Shown one piece after another: positions 2,192 through 53,983 of a DNA stretch of 64,000 nucleotides; the stretch's first letter is position 1; every line of letters begins with the position of its first letter. The translations under genes were made by a program, and so were the position numbers. Source of the DNA: Alphaproteobacteria bacterium (GTDB taxonomy: Bacteria; Pseudomonadota; Alphaproteobacteria; RF32; CAG-239). The notes beneath the pieces were generated by a model, which was given only the letters and a program-made list of their open reading frames with translations, ran no database searches and was not told the origin of the DNA. The stretch is from assembly GCA_045116295.1 (NCBI GenBank), contig JBGULQ010000003.1, positions 17,393 through 81,392 of the forward strand, in the 5' to 3' direction.

Positions 2192-2905
2192 ATGATGACT
2201 ATTTATACCTATGACATGCTGGATAAAGAATTAAAAGACGGAAAGGCTAATGTGTGTATGTCTTCTGAAAGCGCGCGGATTATTATCCCGACAGCGTGTG
2301 ATGAGGTTGTGGGGTTTACAAACCCTGATGATTTGGATGTTGATTTGTTGGCTCGTTGGAAGCAGGGAGAGAGAGGAGAGGAATTTGAAAATCAAAAACT
2401 AAAACCGGGGGATTGTTTGGTTGTTTATGATAATGAAAATGATTTTAACCGTGTTTTGAAGAAATATCCTGATTGGTACAAGACTCCTGAGGGAATTAAG
2501 CAGGTTATTGAAGATTTGTATAACTGTGCCGATTTGGGGGCTAAAAACGTTGAGCCGGCAATATGGAACAGCGACCTGAGGTGGGCAAAAGGTGTCAGTC
2601 TGGTGACTCCTGATGGCAAAAAAGTTGATGAAAAAACTTGGCAGGATAATCTCGGAAAAGCACTAAGTGTTCAGAAATTTCCTTTGCCGGTAAAACAGTA
2701 TTTTATTTTACTTAATCCGGGAGATAAGATAATGTCGCCGGAGGGAAGAGTTCAAACAGCCGGAGTTGTATCGGCGATTGCAGTAAAACAGCCGCATGGC
2801 GGATGGAATATGGTGCAGTTGTGTCCCCGCGGATATAAGGTTGATGAGGCACATAGTGTAAGTCAAGTGCGGATAAAACCACATGAGCAGGAAAGTACCA
2901 GATAA
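2192..2905 (+). CDS. Hypothetical protein
   Basis: 237-aa ORF with SD (gagga) upstream; no recognisable family. Confidence 0.7.
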   Translation: MMTIYTYDMLDKELKDGKANVCMSSESARIIIPTACDEVVGFTNPDDLDVDLLARWKQGERGEEFENQKLKPGDCLVVYDNENDFNRVLKKYPDWYKTPEGIKQVIEDLYNCADLGAKNVEPAIWNSDLRWAKGVSLVTPDGKKVDEKTWQDNLGKALSVQKFPLPVKQYFILLNPGDKIMSPEGRVQTAGVVSAIAVKQPHGGWNMVQLCPRGYKVDEAHSVSQVRIKPHEQESTR

Positions 2906-2995
2906 TTAACAGATTGACAAAATTCTTGAAATATGATATTCCGCGCGGGTGTTTGAATTTATTATTTCTATTTTTAATGTCTAAATAATTATTGT

Positions 2996-3472
2996 ATGGA
3001 AGGCTATTATGTATCCAGATTCGTCTTGTTTCTGGTGTGTTTGGTTTGTGCTTTTGCGGTTTATGGTTCTCAGAGAATCAGATTCTGCATTAATAAGAAG
3101 GTATATAACCGATTTTTTGCCGTGATATTCGCGCTGTTGACCGCATATATTGTGTATGACAATGTTTGTTGCGGTTTGCCTGAAATGTGGGTGCCTGCAA
3201 TATTGGGGTATTTGTTCGTGTATTTTTGGGTGTTGGCTGTTTGGGACATGTATCTGCCATGCACTAAGCTTGAGGCTGATAAGGTATATAAAATGACAGT
3301 TATCGGAAGTACATGTATCGAATCGGGCGTGAATTATGTCGGCAATATTGAAACAGCTGATGGAAAAACAGTGCAGGTATATCTGAATGATGAACAAGCA
3401 GGGTGTTTTGAGGTGGATGTACAATTTTCTGAAATCTACTTTGGCAAAATTCAGGTATGTCGCGCCAAATAG
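2996..3472 (+). CDS. Hypothetical membrane protein (about 3 TM plus soluble C-terminus)
   Basis: Three hydrophobic segments; TTGACA-type promoter near 2914 and a terminator directly downstream. Confidence 0.7.
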   Translation: MEGYYVSRFVLFLVCLVCAFAVYGSQRIRFCINKKVYNRFFAVIFALLTAYIVYDNVCCGLPEMWVPAILGYLFVYFWVLAVWDMYLPCTKLEADKVYKMTVIGSTCIESGVNYVGNIETADGKTVQVYLNDEQAGCFEVDVQFSEIYFGKIQVCRAK

Positions 3473-3478
3473 CTTTTG

Positions 3479-3514
3479 ATTAAACCCGCTGAGTGAGGAC
3501 TTGGCGGGTTTAAT
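3479..3514 (+). terminator. Intrinsic terminator hairpin
   Basis: attaaacccgc...gcgggtttaat inverted repeat 7 nt after the stop. Confidence 0.65.
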
Positions 3515-3552
3515 GTATATAATGCTATAATATTTGGTAGAGAGTGAAAAGT

Positions 3553-3586
3553 AAAACGGCCTGCTCATAATTGAGCAGGCCGTTTT
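3553..3586 (-). terminator. Intrinsic terminator hairpin
   Basis: aaaacggcctgctca-taat-tgagcaggccgtttt perfect inverted repeat downstream of 3601..4077. Confidence 0.75.
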
Positions 3587-3600
3587 CGGTGCAGAATAGC

Positions 3601-4077
3601 TCACGCTATGTGTGATCTTACCCATTCAAAGCTTGCGACAGACCACGTGTTGCGGATATGCTCGCGTACGCGAGTATTCAGGGATAGAATAATCTTTCCA
3701 GCGAACAATTGAACTATCCAGAAAGCAAGCTTTTCAGGATAATTGAACAAAACCTTCTCAATCTGGTCAGGAGTTGGGTATAATTCTCTGTCCAGAAATT
3801 CACGGGCAAAAGCCATTGCCCAAATCTCAACTAGTAGGCTTTTTTCTTCATCGTTTGTCACTATTGTATCCTCATCAGTCAAAAGCTGTGTAAACAGCTG
3901 GGGCAGGTTAGCAAGATGTGATCGCATCTCGTCATTTCTCTCCATTTTTAGAAAAAGTCGAAAAGAGTAACCTTTTTTATAGATTACATCACCTCTGCAA
4001 CCACTAGGCATCTTTGTAACTTCTGCACTCGGAGGAATTTCGCATTCGCCAATGAAAAAAGTAGGATATCTTTCCAT
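3601..4077 (-). CDS. Hypothetical protein
   Basis: 158-aa ORF followed by a terminator; no recognisable family. Confidence 0.65.
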   Translation of the reverse strand: MERYPTFFIGECEIPPSAEVTKMPSGCRGDVIYKKGYSFRLFLKMERNDEMRSHLANLPQLFTQLLTDEDTIVTNDEEKSLLVEIWAMAFAREFLDRELYPTPDQIEKVLFNYPEKLAFWIVQLFAGKIILSLNTRVREHIRNTWSVASFEWVRSHIA

Positions 4078-5108: not shown

Positions 5109-6472
5109 TAGAGTTTCTCCAATATTTGGTGGCATAAGTCAGTAAGTGAATTGTCACGCGCGCCCATGATAACAATACGGTCGCCGGAATGAGCTAATTC
5201 AAGAATTTTTTGCATGGCGGCGGGTTTGTCGGGAACAAAAAAAGCATTTTTTTTGCCGAGACTGGCGGCATGATTGATTAAGTCTTGTGATGAAATATCT
5301 TTGGCAACCGTGCCACCGACAAAGAATATTTCGGGCATTATTAATATGTCATCATCGTTTAAGTTGTGCGCAAATTCGGCCATAATATCTTTGCCCATTG
5401 TACGCATTGGGGCAAAACCGTGCGGTTGGAACATAATTATAAGCCTGCCGTCATAACTGCGCAATGCACTTACGGAAGCTTTAACTTTGTCGGGATTGTG
5501 GGCAAAGTCATCGATTACAGTGATGTTGTTTTTTTGCCCGATTACTTCAAGACGGCGTTTAGTACCGTGGAAATTTTGTAAAATTTCGGCGGCTGAATGC
5601 TTGTCCAGTCCCATAGCAGAGCAGGTGGCAATGGCGGCAAGAGCGTTAGCAACATTAAATTCTCCAATGAGTTTTAGGGTATATGTATGTCCGTCAAAGC
5701 TGTATTGTACACCACCGGCGAGAGGGGTTATGTCTGAGGCATAAAAGTCGGCGGCAGGGTTGTGGGTTGAAAAGCTGAGTACAGGTTTGCTGATTTTCAG
5801 CTTGTGGCAAAGTTCGTAGTCATCGTTAATGATAACGGCTTTTTCGGTGCGGTTGGCAAAGTTCTGGAACAAAACCGCAAGCTCATCCAAAGTTTTGTGA
5901 TCGACGGAAATGTTGGTTATTACCGAAATATAAGGATTATACAAGTCGATGCTGCCGTTACTTTCATCAGCTTCAACAACACAAATTTCGCCACGGTTAT
6001 AAATAATGTTAGGAATGGCACTGGTGCCTTCATAGTCGCGTAAAAGTCCGCCGTTAATCATGCAAGGTTTTTTGCCGGCTTTGTCAAGGATGTAGCCAAT
6101 CATCGCGGTGGTCGTGGTTTTGCCGCTGGTGCCACCAACAGCAATGCCATAACGGTAGGAGTGGAAAGTCTCTGCCAGTAACTGAGGACGGGTTTTGATG
6201 ATAACATTTTTTTCTTTGGCGGCTTTAACATCTGGAATACTGTCTTCTACAGCAGTTGAGGCACAAAGCCATTGAAGATCCTGTGAAATCCATGAGCCGT
6301 CTTGGGGGTATATGGAAATCCCCATTTTTTCCATTTTTTCTTTGGTAGTCAAATCTCGTCCCAAATCAAAATTGCGGTCAGAACCACATACGTCATAGCC
6401 GGAAAGTTTCAAAATTTGAGCAAGTGAGCTCATGCCACTGCCGGAAATTCCGCAAAAACCTACTTTTGTCAT
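5108..6472 (-). CDS. Mur ligase, MurC/Mpl-like (probable peptidoglycan-recycling murein peptide ligase)
   Basis: GISGSGMSSLA, GTSGKTTTT P-loop, VEADES, DDFAHNP, FQPHG motifs; translationally coupled to ldcA. Confidence 0.88.
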   Translation of the reverse strand: MTKVGFCGISGSGMSSLAQILKLSGYDVCGSDRNFDLGRDLTTKEKMEKMGISIYPQDGSWISQDLQWLCASTAVEDSIPDVKAAKEKNVIIKTRPQLLAETFHSYRYGIAVGGTSGKTTTTAMIGYILDKAGKKPCMINGGLLRDYEGTSAIPNIIYNRGEICVVEADESNGSIDLYNPYISVITNISVDHKTLDELAVLFQNFANRTEKAVIINDDYELCHKLKISKPVLSFSTHNPAADFYASDITPLAGGVQYSFDGHTYTLKLIGEFNVANALAAIATCSAMGLDKHSAAEILQNFHGTKRRLEVIGQKNNITVIDDFAHNPDKVKASVSALRSYDGRLIIMFQPHGFAPMRTMGKDIMAEFAHNLNDDDILIMPEIFFVGGTVAKDISSQDLINHAASLGKKNAFFVPDKPAAMQKILELAHSGDRIVIMGARDNSLTDLCHQILEKL

Positions 6473-32253: not shown

Positions 32254-32329
<76 letters not shown>

Positions 32330-32510
32330 TTAAAGGTTTCCTATTCTGAAAATCTCCGCCGATTAATATCGACGGAGATTTTGCGTTGCTAACTCTTGCT
32401 CCTAAGCATTAAAAATGCTAAGTCGCTTCGGTCACTCGTATTGTAACATTTGCTATGCACGCGGTTGCGGCAAAGCAAATTAACAATACTTCGCCCGTCG
32501 TTGACCAAAC

Positions 32511-32654
32511 AGACATTTAGTCAGGTTGGTCTTTCTCCGGCGCATTCGTAATGCGTGGGGGAAAAGTTCGAGTCACTTAACCGGCACCATTAAAGGTTTC
32601 CTATTCTGAAAATCTCCGTCGATAGAAATCGGCGGAGATTTTGCGTTGCTAACT
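32511..32654 (+). pseudogene. Degenerate tandem copy of tRNA-Thr(CGT) plus its terminator
   Basis: 32281-32394 repeats at 32541-32654 (period 260) with substitutions in the variable loop/T arm; the D-arm is degenerate (tttagtcaggttggt). Confidence 0.8.
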
Positions 32655-41496: not shown

Positions 41497-41556
41497 AAAA
41501 AAGCCTCCATGAAGGAGGCTTTTTTAATGGTGCGCGACTAAAGCGATTATCGGACT
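41497..41556 (-). repeat. Third, degenerate copy of the tRNA-Thr(GGT) 3' end plus terminator
   Basis: Minus strand agtccgat...gcgcaccattaaaaaaagcctcc...ggaggctttttt matches the tRNA 3' end and terminator at 42565-42631. Confidence 0.7.
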
Positions 41557-41614
41557 AACCACGCGCAAGAATGTAAAGCGTTGGAAGATAAGATACAAAC
41601 ACTTACTAGTTAAA

Positions 41615-42208
41615 TTACCACGATTTTTTAAAATCGCTGAAAAATTCATCAAGTTCATCCATGGTTACAAAAGAATCATTATTAAAGTCTAGACTGTGAA
41701 AGCTAGGGTAATCAATTGAGGTAAAATCAAAATTGACGTATTCATCAAAAGATATTTTTTGATTATGATCGGCATCCACCATCTCAGCATATAGTAAGCC
41801 AAATTTTGATATGTAATTACCTTGAAATGAGCTACGATATTCTTCCGTAGATATATATCCGTCACTGTTTTTATCCATATAAGCAAAATAATTTTTTAAA
41901 TCTGTCTGATATTTTGTAGGGTTAACCATTTCGATAAACCAATATTGTTGGAGTGAAATGTTGTCATTTTTTTCTAGATTTAAGCTTTTATATATATTTG
42001 ATAAATGGGCACGATAACCTGTATGTCCATCACAGACAGCATACTCTTTTTTCGAAATTTTTCCATCGTGATTAAAATCATATTGTTGCATTATTTGAAA
42101 GGTATCAGGCGGTGAATTATTTGAATTTACGTTAGCAGGAGCCATTTGAGCGCAAGCATCAGATGTAATGAAATAAATAAGTGATATATAGCTCAATATT
42201 CTTAACAT
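41615..42208 (-). CDS. Secreted EF-hand calcium-binding repeat protein
   Basis: Signal peptide (...SDACA); EF loops DFNHDGKISKKE, DKNSDGYISTEE, DADHNQKISFDE, DFNNDSFVTMDE, plus one degenerate loop. Confidence 0.85.
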   Translation of the reverse strand: MLRILSYISLIYFITSDACAQMAPANVNSNNSPPDTFQIMQQYDFNHDGKISKKEYAVCDGHTGYRAHLSNIYKSLNLEKNDNISLQQYWFIEMVNPTKYQTDLKNYFAYMDKNSDGYISTEEYRSSFQGNYISKFGLLYAEMVDADHNQKISFDEYVNFDFTSIDYPSFHSLDFNNDSFVTMDELDEFFSDFKKSW

Positions 42209-42364
42209 TATAACCCCTGTGTAGTTATTAACGTCGATTATTCTACTATATGTCTATTAAAATTTAATTAAGTCCGATAGATAAAGAGAAATTGCTTAGC
42301 ACCTACAAATGACGTGAAAAGCACTTATCGGATAATGACGGAGTTAGTCCGTTTATACAGAAGA

Positions 42365-42529
42365 ACCATTAAAAAAACCTCCATAAGGGGAGGCTTTTTT
42401 AATGGTGCCGCTAGACGAAGGTGCGCGCGTTTCACACAGCGCATCTTTCGCTTACGCTCAAGACCTCGGACGCTTTGCGCCTCGTCCAACTTCGCAACAC
42501 TATGGCGTTGCTTGTTAGTCGGACTTACG
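42365..42529 (-). pseudogene. Split 3'-half copy of tRNA-Thr(GGT) with a 104-nt insert, plus duplicated terminator
   Basis: T-arm piece cgtaagtccga (42519-42529) and ctagcggcacca plus terminator (42365-42414) are separated by 42415-42518. Confidence 0.75.
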
Positions 42530-42602
42530 TTGCCCCCGTAAGTTCGCTTCTAACTGCGATCGAAACCATTAAAAAAGCCTCCATAAGGGGAGGCGTTTTT
42601 AA

Positions 42603-42677
42603 TGGTGCCGCTAGTAAGAATCGGACTTACGACCCCGTCATTACCAATGACGTGCTCTACCACTGAGCTATAGCGGC
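42603..42677 (-). tRNA. tRNA-Thr(GGT)
   Basis: 75-nt cloverleaf GCCGCTA...TAGCGGCACCA; anticodon arm cgtca-ttGGTaa-tgacg. Confidence 0.95.
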
Positions 42678-42719
42678 ATAATAATATTTATCTTGTCTGC
42701 TTCTTGCCTTTTCCTCGCA

Positions 42720-42872
42720 CGTCATTACCAATGACGTTCTTCGGCATCTAAGCTCAATGCGGTTGTTGTCACTTCCCTGCTTCGCTAAGATGTTCCGAAG
42801 AACTTGCAGACAAAAATGACATTCAATGTCATTTTTACTTAGCGTTACCACTGAGCTATAGCGGCATAATAA
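42720..42872 (-). pseudogene. Split 5'-half copy of tRNA-Thr(GGT) with a 108-nt insert
   Basis: tRNA nt 1-20 plus 5' flank (42846-42872) and the anticodon arm (42720-42737) are separated by 42738-42845. Confidence 0.75.
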
Positions 42873-42984
42873 CTGGTAGTGAACATACAGATATAAAAAA
42901 TAAAAATCAAGTAGTTTTTTTATTTAAATACAAAAAACGTTGGAAATTGTGTTTCCAACGTTTTTTGTTTGTGGTTTGTTGTGC

Positions 42985-43437
42985 TTAGAAGTATAACCTC
43001 GGAGTTTCGGTGATGAATTGCAGGAGTTTTTTGATGTAATCACACGTACCGTAGTAGTGGTGGTATGCACCTGTTGCTTCTGTACCGGCTTCATCAACCA
43101 CAACTTCATTTTTGGCAGCAGCTTTTTCGTACTGTTCAAACATGCTTGTGCAGAAAGGAGTGTAAAATACAAAATCGTCTTGGCAAGTGTACATTACTCG
43201 CAAATATCCCCGTCCATGTGTGATGGGGACAACGAGGTTCGAGTGTAGGGTGTGTACACTATTAACGTGTTGTTTGAAAAGGTACCAATCCTCTTGTGGA
43301 AAGGTGATTACAACAAGCCAGATACCCCCAAAACGTGCTGTCTTGATAATCTGCACCTGATAATGGTCGCCAATGGCTTTCTGCAAGTCTAAACGAAGCT
43401 GTTCAATTTGTTGTTCTGTAGGCTTTTTCATATTCAA
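42985..43437 (-). CDS. Hypothetical protein, tandem paralogue 1
   Basis: Aligns with 43556..44032 (QLRxDLQK-x-x-GD-x-Y-x-x-QIIKT-x-R-x-G...LVVIT; LRVMYTC). Confidence 0.75.
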   Translation of the reverse strand: MNMKKPTEQQIEQLRLDLQKAIGDHYQVQIIKTARFGGIWLVVITFPQEDWYLFKQHVNSVHTLHSNLVVPITHGRGYLRVMYTCQDDFVFYTPFCTSMFEQYEKAAAKNEVVVDEAGTEATGAYHHYYGTCDYIKKLLQFITETPRLYF

Positions 43438-43555
43438 TAATAGTTTAATAATTAAAATTGTCTGTAAAATATCATGTTTTTGTCTAATGTCAAGAAAAAT
43501 ACAAAAAACGCTGGAAACTGTGTTTCCAACGTTTTTTGTGTGTTACCCGGTGTGC

Positions 43556-44032
43556 TCAAAACCATATTTTTTTACTTTCGGTGATGAGTGTTATGAATTC
43601 TCTGATGTCATCACATTCATAGAAAAAACAGGCCCAGGGATTGCAGTGACGTGTATATGCTTGAACGTTAAACATTCTATGCCAGTTAAAGATGTTTGTT
43701 ACATAATCAATGAAAAGCACAAAATGGTTCTTGCAAGTGTACATCACTCGTAGATTCTCTTTGAATTTTTCCACTATTGGTAAGATATTACCGTAATGCA
43801 GTTGTCCTACACTGCTCTCATACGGAAAGTAGTAGGGAGAGTTTGGTACCTCATCACGGTAATCAAGGAAGGTGTCTTCAGCGTCTTCCGAGTAGGTGAT
43901 TACCACAAGGTGAATGTCACCAATGCGTTGTGTCTTGATAATTTGCAACGAGTATTGGTCGCCACAAACCTTTTGCAAGTCTGAACGCAATTGCTGAAGT
44001 TCAGCTTCTGTAAGCGTTGTATCCTTTTTCAT
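43556..44032 (-). CDS. Hypothetical protein, tandem paralogue 2
   Basis: See paralogue 1; each copy is followed by a near-identical terminator (about 42929-42968 and 43500-43540). Confidence 0.75.
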   Translation of the reverse strand: MKKDTTLTEAELQQLRSDLQKVCGDQYSLQIIKTQRIGDIHLVVITYSEDAEDTFLDYRDEVPNSPYYFPYESSVGQLHYGNILPIVEKFKENLRVMYTCKNHFVLFIDYVTNIFNWHRMFNVQAYTRHCNPWACFFYECDDIREFITLITESKKIWF

Positions 44033-53691: not shown

Positions 53692-53905
53692 AAAAAAAGC
53701 GACATTAAGTCGCTTTTTTTAGGTATCTAGCTTCGTAAGGTTCGCGATAATATCGCAATTTCAATTCCGACTAATGCTTTTATTTTGCGTCGTTTACACT
53801 AGCTCATAAAAGCAAGTCTCATTGCGTCTCCTTATAAAAAGTGCGTTAAAGCACTTTTTATTGCGGCCGTACCATAAAAAAAAGCGACATTAAGTCGCTT
53901 TTTTT
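53692..53905. repeat. Duplicated terminator (29-nt direct repeat, period 185) flanking an about 155-nt hairpin-rich spacer behind tRNA-Glu
   Basis: aaaaaaagcgacattaagtcgcttttttt at 53692-53720 and 53877-53905. Confidence 0.8.
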
Positions 53906-53907
53906 AA

Positions 53908-53983
53908 TGGTGATCCCAGCGAGACTCGAACTCGCGTTACCGCCGTGAGAGGGCGATGTCCTAGGCCACTAGACGATGGGACC
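53908..53983 (-). tRNA. tRNA-Glu(CTC)
   Basis: 76-nt cloverleaf GGTCCCA...TGGGATCACCA; anticodon arm cgcc-ctCTCac-ggcg; GTTCGAGT T-loop. Confidence 0.95.

Follow-up and report, generated by a model that had tools for sequence, protein, structure and literature searches.

Why should an intact tRNA gene stand between two incomplete copies of itself, each interrupted by roughly one hundred nucleotides of other sequence? This arrangement surrounds the tRNA-Thr(GGT) gene of an alphaproteobacterium, in a stretch of 64,000 nucleotides (nt) that was analyzed as a whole and that we refer to as the window (GenBank assembly GCA_045116295.1, contig JBGULQ010000003.1). One intact tRNA-Thr(GGT) was identified there by ARAGORN and Rfam (42603-42677, minus strand; 70.8 bits). 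An earlier note, written from the sequence alone, had reported an intact tRNA flanked by interrupted half-copies, and our analysis confirms this to the base, including the lengths of the two inserts (108 and 104 nt) and the tRNA bases that they replace. The hairpins listed in that note were also all recovered in the repeat list and the predicted folds. The best reading of our results is that the locus is one tRNA-Thr(GGT) transcription unit carrying two optional and unrelated structured-RNA modules, each capped by a copy of a tRNA end.

The anatomy of the locus is observed directly. Positions within the tRNA are linear and are given along the minus strand, in the direction of transcription. 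The upstream unit, module A, opens with a head (42846..42872, minus strand) made of the 7-nt 5′ flank and nt 1-20 of the tRNA. This head and the stretch 42658-42684 at the intact tRNA form a direct repeat of 27 nt (100% identity; period of 188), of which the head is copy 1. It is followed by insert 1 (42738..42845, minus strand; 108 nt), which stands in place of GAGC (tRNA nt 21-24), then by a copy of the anticodon stem-loop (tRNA nt 25-42; 42720..42737, minus strand) and by a variable linker of 42 nt (42678..42719, minus strand), whose final 10 nt, ATATTATTAT, are invariant and directly adjoin the intact tRNA. Insert 1 itself comprises an A/U-flanked hairpin (hairpin 1; 42812-42836) and a second domain, a long irregular hairpin with an outer helix (TTCTTCGG/CCGAAGAA) and an inner helix (CATCTTAGC/GCTTAGATG).

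Downstream, the intact tRNA is followed by a terminator, T1 (42564..42602, minus strand), and module C begins 22 nt past T1 on the same strand as the tRNA. The left arm of module C (42530..42563, minus strand) contains a degenerate acceptor 5′ strand, GCAGTTAG (42557->42550), and an antisense piece of the T arm, CGAACTTACG (42546->42537), with the loop GGGGCAA, found in the repeat list and the fold; this arm is not conserved in L085, L094 and the long-form variants described below. Next comes a forward copy of tRNA nt 47-57, CGTAAGTCCGA (42519..42529, minus strand), directly preceded by ACGGGGGCAA. The GTCCGA of this copy supplies one of the two strands of the first helix in insert 2, and the copy is kept at 100% in every variant but one (L086 has CATAAG). 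Insert 2 (42415..42518, minus strand; 104 nt) stands in place of TTCTTA and presents a six-helix fold. The unit closes with a tail made of the last 12 nt of the tRNA, CTAGCGGCACCA, including CCA (42403..42414, minus strand), and with a second terminator, T2 (42365..42402, minus strand); tail and terminator together form a 51-nt repeat with 96% identity and a period of 200. The two inserts differ in sequence, as had been noted, and are unrelated to one another.

Are these junctions genuine? An assembly chimera, which the earlier note had named as a possible ground for dismissing them, was ruled out: Logan contigs from eight runs of several studies (X1-X4, X5, X7, X8 and X9) carry junctions identical to those of the window, and independent ENA, JGI and NCBI assemblies contain the same pieces (L086, a 139-kb contig, as well as L089, L093, L094 and L097). 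About 10 further samples likewise contain these pieces. Orthologous loci were reached through MurA, encoded 1.6 kb away, and through the orphan neighbour, and further loci came from one metagenome pattern scan; a MurA scan of genome contigs returned only relatives with at most 61% identity, which were uninformative. Among the relatives, modules A and C were directly observed to be separate units of presence and absence. Neither module is found in L087 and L088 (MurA 95% identical), L100 (88%), L102-L109 (84%) and L110-L112 (89%); module A alone is present in L082, L091, L097 and L113, and module C alone in L085, L089, L093 and L094; both are present in the window and in L086. The form without module C also appears in X5, where a Logan contig has 42384 joined to 42589.

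Since A and C are independent of each other, the two “halves” do not belong to a single split gene. We also rejected a tRNA intron (group I or archaeal bulge-helix-bulge) or a split tRNA, as each interrupted copy comes without the other half of the tRNA, A and C are independent and the group I intron model of Rfam gave no match. One could still imagine that the half-copies form a two-piece tRNA-like RNA whose parts work together, or that they serve as decoys for anticodon nucleases. Modules A and C do cover nearly the whole tRNA between them, with the acceptor strands unpaired, the 5′ one in A and the 3′ one, with CCA, in C. We nevertheless regard this as very improbable, because A and C are separate in most strains, the pairing partners of the D arm and the T arm are absent, and the anticodon loop of module A is not conserved. 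In the clade with 91% MurA identity, this loop has drifted from GGT to GGC, GGTC or TGTC with the stem unchanged, which contradicts the decoy function that had been suggested.

The downstream side presents further variants. L095 carries two downstream units in tandem, and a long downstream form was found in L083, L084, L086 and L095. This form opens with a “down” module containing pieces of the anticodon arm, both antisense and forward. Directly after the TGGTA of the anticodon loop comes a diverged homologue of insert 1, and GGGGTCGTAAGTCCGA leads from there to insert 2 and then to the tail. In the window, the “down” module (42291..42364, minus strand) contains the anticodon arm twice, once as a degenerate antisense copy (42320-42344) and once in forward orientation (42304-42316); the module runs into a gene for an EF-hand protein there and into the long downstream form in the relatives. 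The tail of module C is followed by sequences that are non-homologous between strains, five of which are clear hairpin-plus-T-run terminators. L082 (MurA 98% identical) has a different downstream unit (5380-5511), with a perfect antisense copy of the anticodon arm and then tRNA nt 42-56, beyond which the sequence is GC-rich and unrelated up to the edge of the contig.

The intact tRNA is 96-100% identical among the relatives. Its T loop, UCCGAUU, is unusual in presenting a C where the near-universal U55 is expected, and all the relatives keep it. Its T stem in L100 is compensated (GCAAG/CUUGC), and in L082 there is an A7-C mismatch in the acceptor stem.

What, then, are the cores between the tRNA pieces? 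Their sequence constraint was measured directly against the window. At fourfold-degenerate sites of murA, identity to the window is 0.49 for L086, 0.51 for L089 and 0.35 for L091. Identity of insert 1 reaches 0.97 in L082, 0.95 in L086 and 0.86-0.87 in the clade with 91% MurA identity (0.86 in L091), and that of insert 2 ranges from 0.82 to 0.99 (0.93 in L086 and 0.86 in L089). The other segments present identities of 0.42-0.65 (module A linker), 0.33-0.85 (left arm of module C) and 0.33-0.52 (terminators). In four more samples, about 14 of the 42 sites of the linker are variable versus 7 of the 108 sites of insert 1; of these variable sites of insert 1, five fall in loop regions of the predicted fold, another at the centre of the loop of hairpin 1 and the last in the pair closing that loop. 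Because drifting and conserved segments coexist within one module, recent transfer alone does not explain the conserved cores. Coding sequence was rejected for both inserts, since the length differences between their copies are not multiples of three nucleotides.

The cores also present signs of constraint on their fold. For insert 2 together with the piece of the T loop, alignment A2 yields six helices with 40 pairs, in which 99.4% of the cells are paired, and five of these pairs present changes on both sides. The covariation score was reached by none of the 500 shuffled alignments, and slid controls drop to 28-49% paired. A strand bias is also observed directly: the fold of insert 2 has a z-score of −2.1 on the tRNA strand versus −0.4 on the opposite strand, and the fold is specific to the tRNA strand because several of its invariant pairs are G-U. 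The fold of insert 1 has a z-score of −3.8, and its hairpin 1 contains two compensated pairs (A-U to U-A and C-G to U-A). The versions of insert 1 found upstream and in the long downstream form share the same layout with different outer-helix sequences, in an alignment that is weak. Module C might also have been closed by an acceptor-like stem (GCAGUUAG with CUAGC-GC), a feature that would recall a tRNA scaffold; we set this stem aside, as it is missing from L085, L094 and the long-form variants.

How might such modules be expressed? A putative tRNA promoter, read from the sequence, lies at 42882..42910 on the minus strand (TTGATT at 42910->42905, a spacing of 17 nt and TATGTT at 42887->42882). 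This block scores 8/12, under the threshold of the scan, and is located upstream of module A and not directly before the intact tRNA; it is kept across all the relatives, with module A present or absent, and the promoter scan found no promoter-like site between module A and the tRNA. A single promoter would then transcribe through module A into the tRNA, and a cut by RNase P at the tRNA 5′ end would release a leader RNA of about 200 nt. Read-through of T1 would yield the module C RNA, whose tRNA-like end (tail and terminator) could share the 3′-end formation of the tRNA. With a leader from a shared promoter and a read-through trailer, both RNAs would be made in step with tRNA-Thr. As to their role, we suppose that modules A and C act as small RNAs, regulatory or protein-binding, in amounts tied to the expression of the tRNA. 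Strains would gain, lose, duplicate and exchange the modules when the tRNA-derived repeats and the terminators recombine. This comes close to one alternative of the earlier note, tRNA-embedded structured RNAs released by tRNA-processing enzymes; the structured RNAs agree with our results, and the processing steps are ones that we infer. As for signs of transcription, an oligo-dT metatranscriptome of the bovine gut (X29, with identical numbers in X30) contains a contig of 160 nt running from insert 1 into the tRNA 5′ end (42664-42822); across 14 kb, no other long piece of the organism is present.

This design has a known counterpart in the tRNA-linked repeats (TLRs) of E. coli, units that directly follow a tRNA or rRNA gene and whose last 18-19 nt repeat the 3′ end of that gene without change (PMC8144298). 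TLRs have been known since 1978 and 22 of them are found at ten loci; RtT of the tyrT operon is one (Egan & Landy 1978 and Rudd 1999, cited in Stenum et al. 2021; PMC8144298). The TLRs of rrnA, rrnB and rrnD are small RNAs (sRNAs; RrA/RrB/RrF) made by read-through between dual terminators, and binding to Hfq and CsrA was shown for these three rRNA-operon members only, the 19 members of tRNA operons being without assigned function (PMC8144298). Module C resembles them in its length of about 100-180 nt, in being non-coding, in its place directly behind a tRNA gene, with which it shares the strand, and between two terminators, in ending in a copy of the tRNA 3′ end and in iterating in tandem, as in L095. 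By analogy, module C may be described as a TLR design without homology, and module A as its mirror image on the 5′ side. Unlike TLRs, the locus of the window contains extra internal pieces of the tRNA (T-arm and anticodon-arm copies, partly antisense). The sRNAs of the 3′ETS-leuZ type come from the flank of a tRNA precursor and are released by tRNA processing (PMC8144298), which is the origin proposed here, but 3′ETS-leuZ is short, unrepeated and without copies of the tRNA end. Apart from the tRNA, Rfam returned only noise at E ≤ 10; YrlA, ROOL, GOLLD and other tRNA-like or large ornate RNAs gave noise-level matches only, and the neighbouring genes encode an EF-hand protein and orphan proteins, not rsr.

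Several observations weigh against this interpretation. Module C presents no homology of sequence or structure to TLRs, and the Rfam model of RtT (RF00391) had no match at E ≤ 10 within 42200-43000. Its tail represents 12 nt of the tRNA (CTAGCGGCACCA) versus 18-19 nt in TLRs, with the identity continuing for 39 nt into the terminator, and module A lies on the 5′ side, opening with the first 20 nt of the tRNA. T1 looks like a good terminator, so module C may be rarely made, and hairpin 1 of insert 1 is terminator-like (an A run, a stem and TTTTT) and could stop transcription before the tRNA. The RNA evidence consists of low-depth Logan contigs; in X22, another metatranscriptome, the low depth of insert 2 equals that of the neighbouring protein genes, where DNA carry-over and read-through are indistinguishable. 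The covariation of insert 2 is based on about five independent lineages, and trials of the tool itself indicate that related sequences can beat shuffles without any structure. Finally, part of the conservation of the cores could come from transfer between lineages after the species had split. With these points taken into account, we still lean, by a modest measure, towards structured RNAs of the TLR type, borne by the tRNA-Thr transcription unit and reshuffled when tRNA-derived repeats recombine.

Could the partial copies instead be scars of integration? Genomic islands at tRNA genes regenerate their target and leave a displaced tRNA fragment (Islander; PMC4383910), and derivatives without integrase, of the type of cis-mobilizable elements (CIMEs), have been reviewed together with integrative and mobilizable elements (PMC5704250). 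Under this explanation, the partial tRNA copies would be displaced fragments or att remnants of lost islands, and the cores would be DNA recombination sites, acting as arm sites or as folded single strands, rather than RNAs. The tRNA is indeed an integration hot spot. In L091, a tyrosine integrase gene (2719-3786) lies 250 nt downstream of the tRNA with TTTGGCACAA direct repeats in between; in L110, the stop codon of a large serine recombinase gene (403-1947) overlaps the tRNA 3′ end; and strains with identical MurA differ in gene content downstream of the tRNA. The claim that no enzyme gene is adjacent therefore holds for the window, whose neighbours are the EF-hand gene and orphan genes, and fails for the relatives, which have integrases at the same tRNA. 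In the window, a third and degenerate copy running from the T loop to CCA, with its terminator (41497..41556, minus strand), closes the EF-hand gene cassette, and a similar degenerate copy plus terminator closes an islet of L089 against the conserved backbone; these contiguous copies reproduce the pattern of regenerated target and displaced fragment (PMC4383910), and islet borders repeatedly contain the T-loop motif AAGTCCGAT, in either orientation.

The classical island architecture thus exists at this locus, but as the architecture of the gene cassettes and not of modules A and C. Like islands and CIMEs, the modules present direct repeats of tRNA segments around strain-variable DNA, tandem units and integrases at the same tRNA in relatives. 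Unlike them, the units of the window are gene-free and 150-190 nt long, their interiors are conserved folds rather than cargo, one unit lies on the 5′ side and the repeat extends mainly into the terminator. The tRNA pieces of A and C are interrupted, with no gene between the repeats, whereas contiguous tRNA pieces enclosing a gene are found in the EF-hand cassette (41497-42414) and in L089. The repeat around module C, with its 12 nt of tRNA and 39 nt of terminator, is not a block running from a crossover to the tRNA end, and a terminator, of varying sequence, comes after the tail in nearly all cases. Further points against scars are the 5′-side position of module A, the G-U pairs that insert 2 keeps and its good fold on one strand only, and the conservation of the cores in lineages without an integrase at the locus and in both the module A and the long downstream contexts. 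We therefore consider integration scars unlikely as the origin of the two modules.

The earlier note had preferred another explanation, in which the inserts are copies of a small non-autonomous element that lands in tRNA loops and duplicates its target, of the kind of miniature inverted-repeat transposable elements (MITEs) or repetitive extragenic palindromes (REPs), or mobilized in trans. All the junctions do fall in loops: after TGGTA of the D loop for module A, after TGGTA of the anticodon loop for the long form and after TCCGA of the T loop. Import of a segment is also indicated in the clade with 91% MurA identity, whose intact tRNA is preceded by ATATTATTAT as in the clade of the window and whose displaced head keeps its own flank, GTCATTAA. 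Both units are moreover genuine indel polymorphisms with direct repeats of tRNA segments at their borders, and this part of the proposal stands. The mobile element itself is not supported. Neither insert has a second copy in the 64-kb window or in about 280 kb of DNA from the relatives, each being confined to this locus. Both are absent from the phage collection, in which only the tRNA was matched; the junction of insert 2 was not found in IMG/VR, and that of insert 1 returned one chance match in coding sequence. A covariance model of insert 2 detected its own homologues at this locus only and missed insert 1, the spacers behind tRNA-Thr(CGT) and tRNA-Glu and the different insert of L082; the two inserts share no common model. 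The two inserts have no terminal inverted repeats, no target-site duplication was found (GAGC and TTCTTA are replaced, not duplicated), and no transposase, reverse transcriptase or HUH gene lies nearby. The two halves vary independently between strains, and the integrases of the relatives are not co-distributed with A or C. A landing element is thus a distinctly improbable source of the inserts.

The earlier note would have given up its proposal if the inserts shared no structure and similar splits occurred at no other tRNA. Half of this refutation applies: the inserts have no common model, as seen above, but duplications of tRNA ends around structured spacers do recur, as the two other tRNAs of the window also trail a strongly structured spacer (z-scores of −5.2 and −3.7) followed by a copy of the tRNA end, a copy of the terminator or both. 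It is possible, though we hold this idea tentatively, that modules A and C belong to a widespread and undescribed class in which unrelated structured cores borrow the first or last nucleotides of a tRNA together with antisense copies. If so, the borrowed ends would act both as processing and expression signals in the transcript and as homology arms for movement between strains and duplication at that tRNA; the TLRs of E. coli would be instances of the same phenomenon and the 5′-side module A the first mirror-image form.

On the preferred reading, with RNA modules attached to the tRNA-Thr(GGT) unit, the locus would constitute a non-enterobacterial counterpart of TLRs with clear signs of selection on both sequence and fold, and would add a version on the 5′ side. 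Natural strains with zero, one or both modules provide built-in deletion controls in gut and rumen metagenomes, so the role of tRNA-linked RNAs becomes testable by strain comparison and by expression of a locus of about 500 nt. For annotators, these results are a warning that a partial tRNA copy next to a tRNA gene need not be an integration scar.

The two other tRNAs of the window present arrangements of their own. At tRNA-Thr(CGT) (32254-32654, plus strand), the terminator is followed by a spacer of 146 nt and then by a 114-nt copy (90% identical) extending from the anticodon arm through CCA and the terminator. The T stem of this copy is destroyed, and spacer and copy fold together with a z-score of −5.2, in a fold that a degenerate arm closes by pairing with the copied tRNA tail. 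At tRNA-Glu(CTC) (53692-53983, minus strand), two identical 30-nt copies of the terminator, 185 nt apart, surround a hairpin-rich spacer (z-score of −3.7).

The EF-hand protein of the window (41615-42208, minus strand) has 197 amino acids (aa) and several EF-hand motifs, and its gene lies between two copies of the tRNA tail and terminator, forming an island-style cassette without integrase. On the other side of the locus, two orphan genes (148/150 aa and 158 aa) occupy the interval between the tRNA promoter and murA (42926-44032), and each ends in a near-identical terminator (42926-42972 and 43497-43539). Both are absent where no gene lies between the tRNA and murA (e.g., L086-L088), and the pair makes up another small islet, the second one, 5′ of the tRNA. 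Lastly, a T-loop-derived motif, AAAGTCCGAT(A/T), occurs repeatedly as two inverted copies with about 35-40 nt between them, placed directly past the final terminator of the array and ahead of the promoter of the islet gene that follows (window, 42269-42278; L089, 3860-3910; L094, 7668-7725; L095, 2310-2365; L100, 3470-3520; L103, 1880-1925). These inverted copies could be an operator or a recombinase site.

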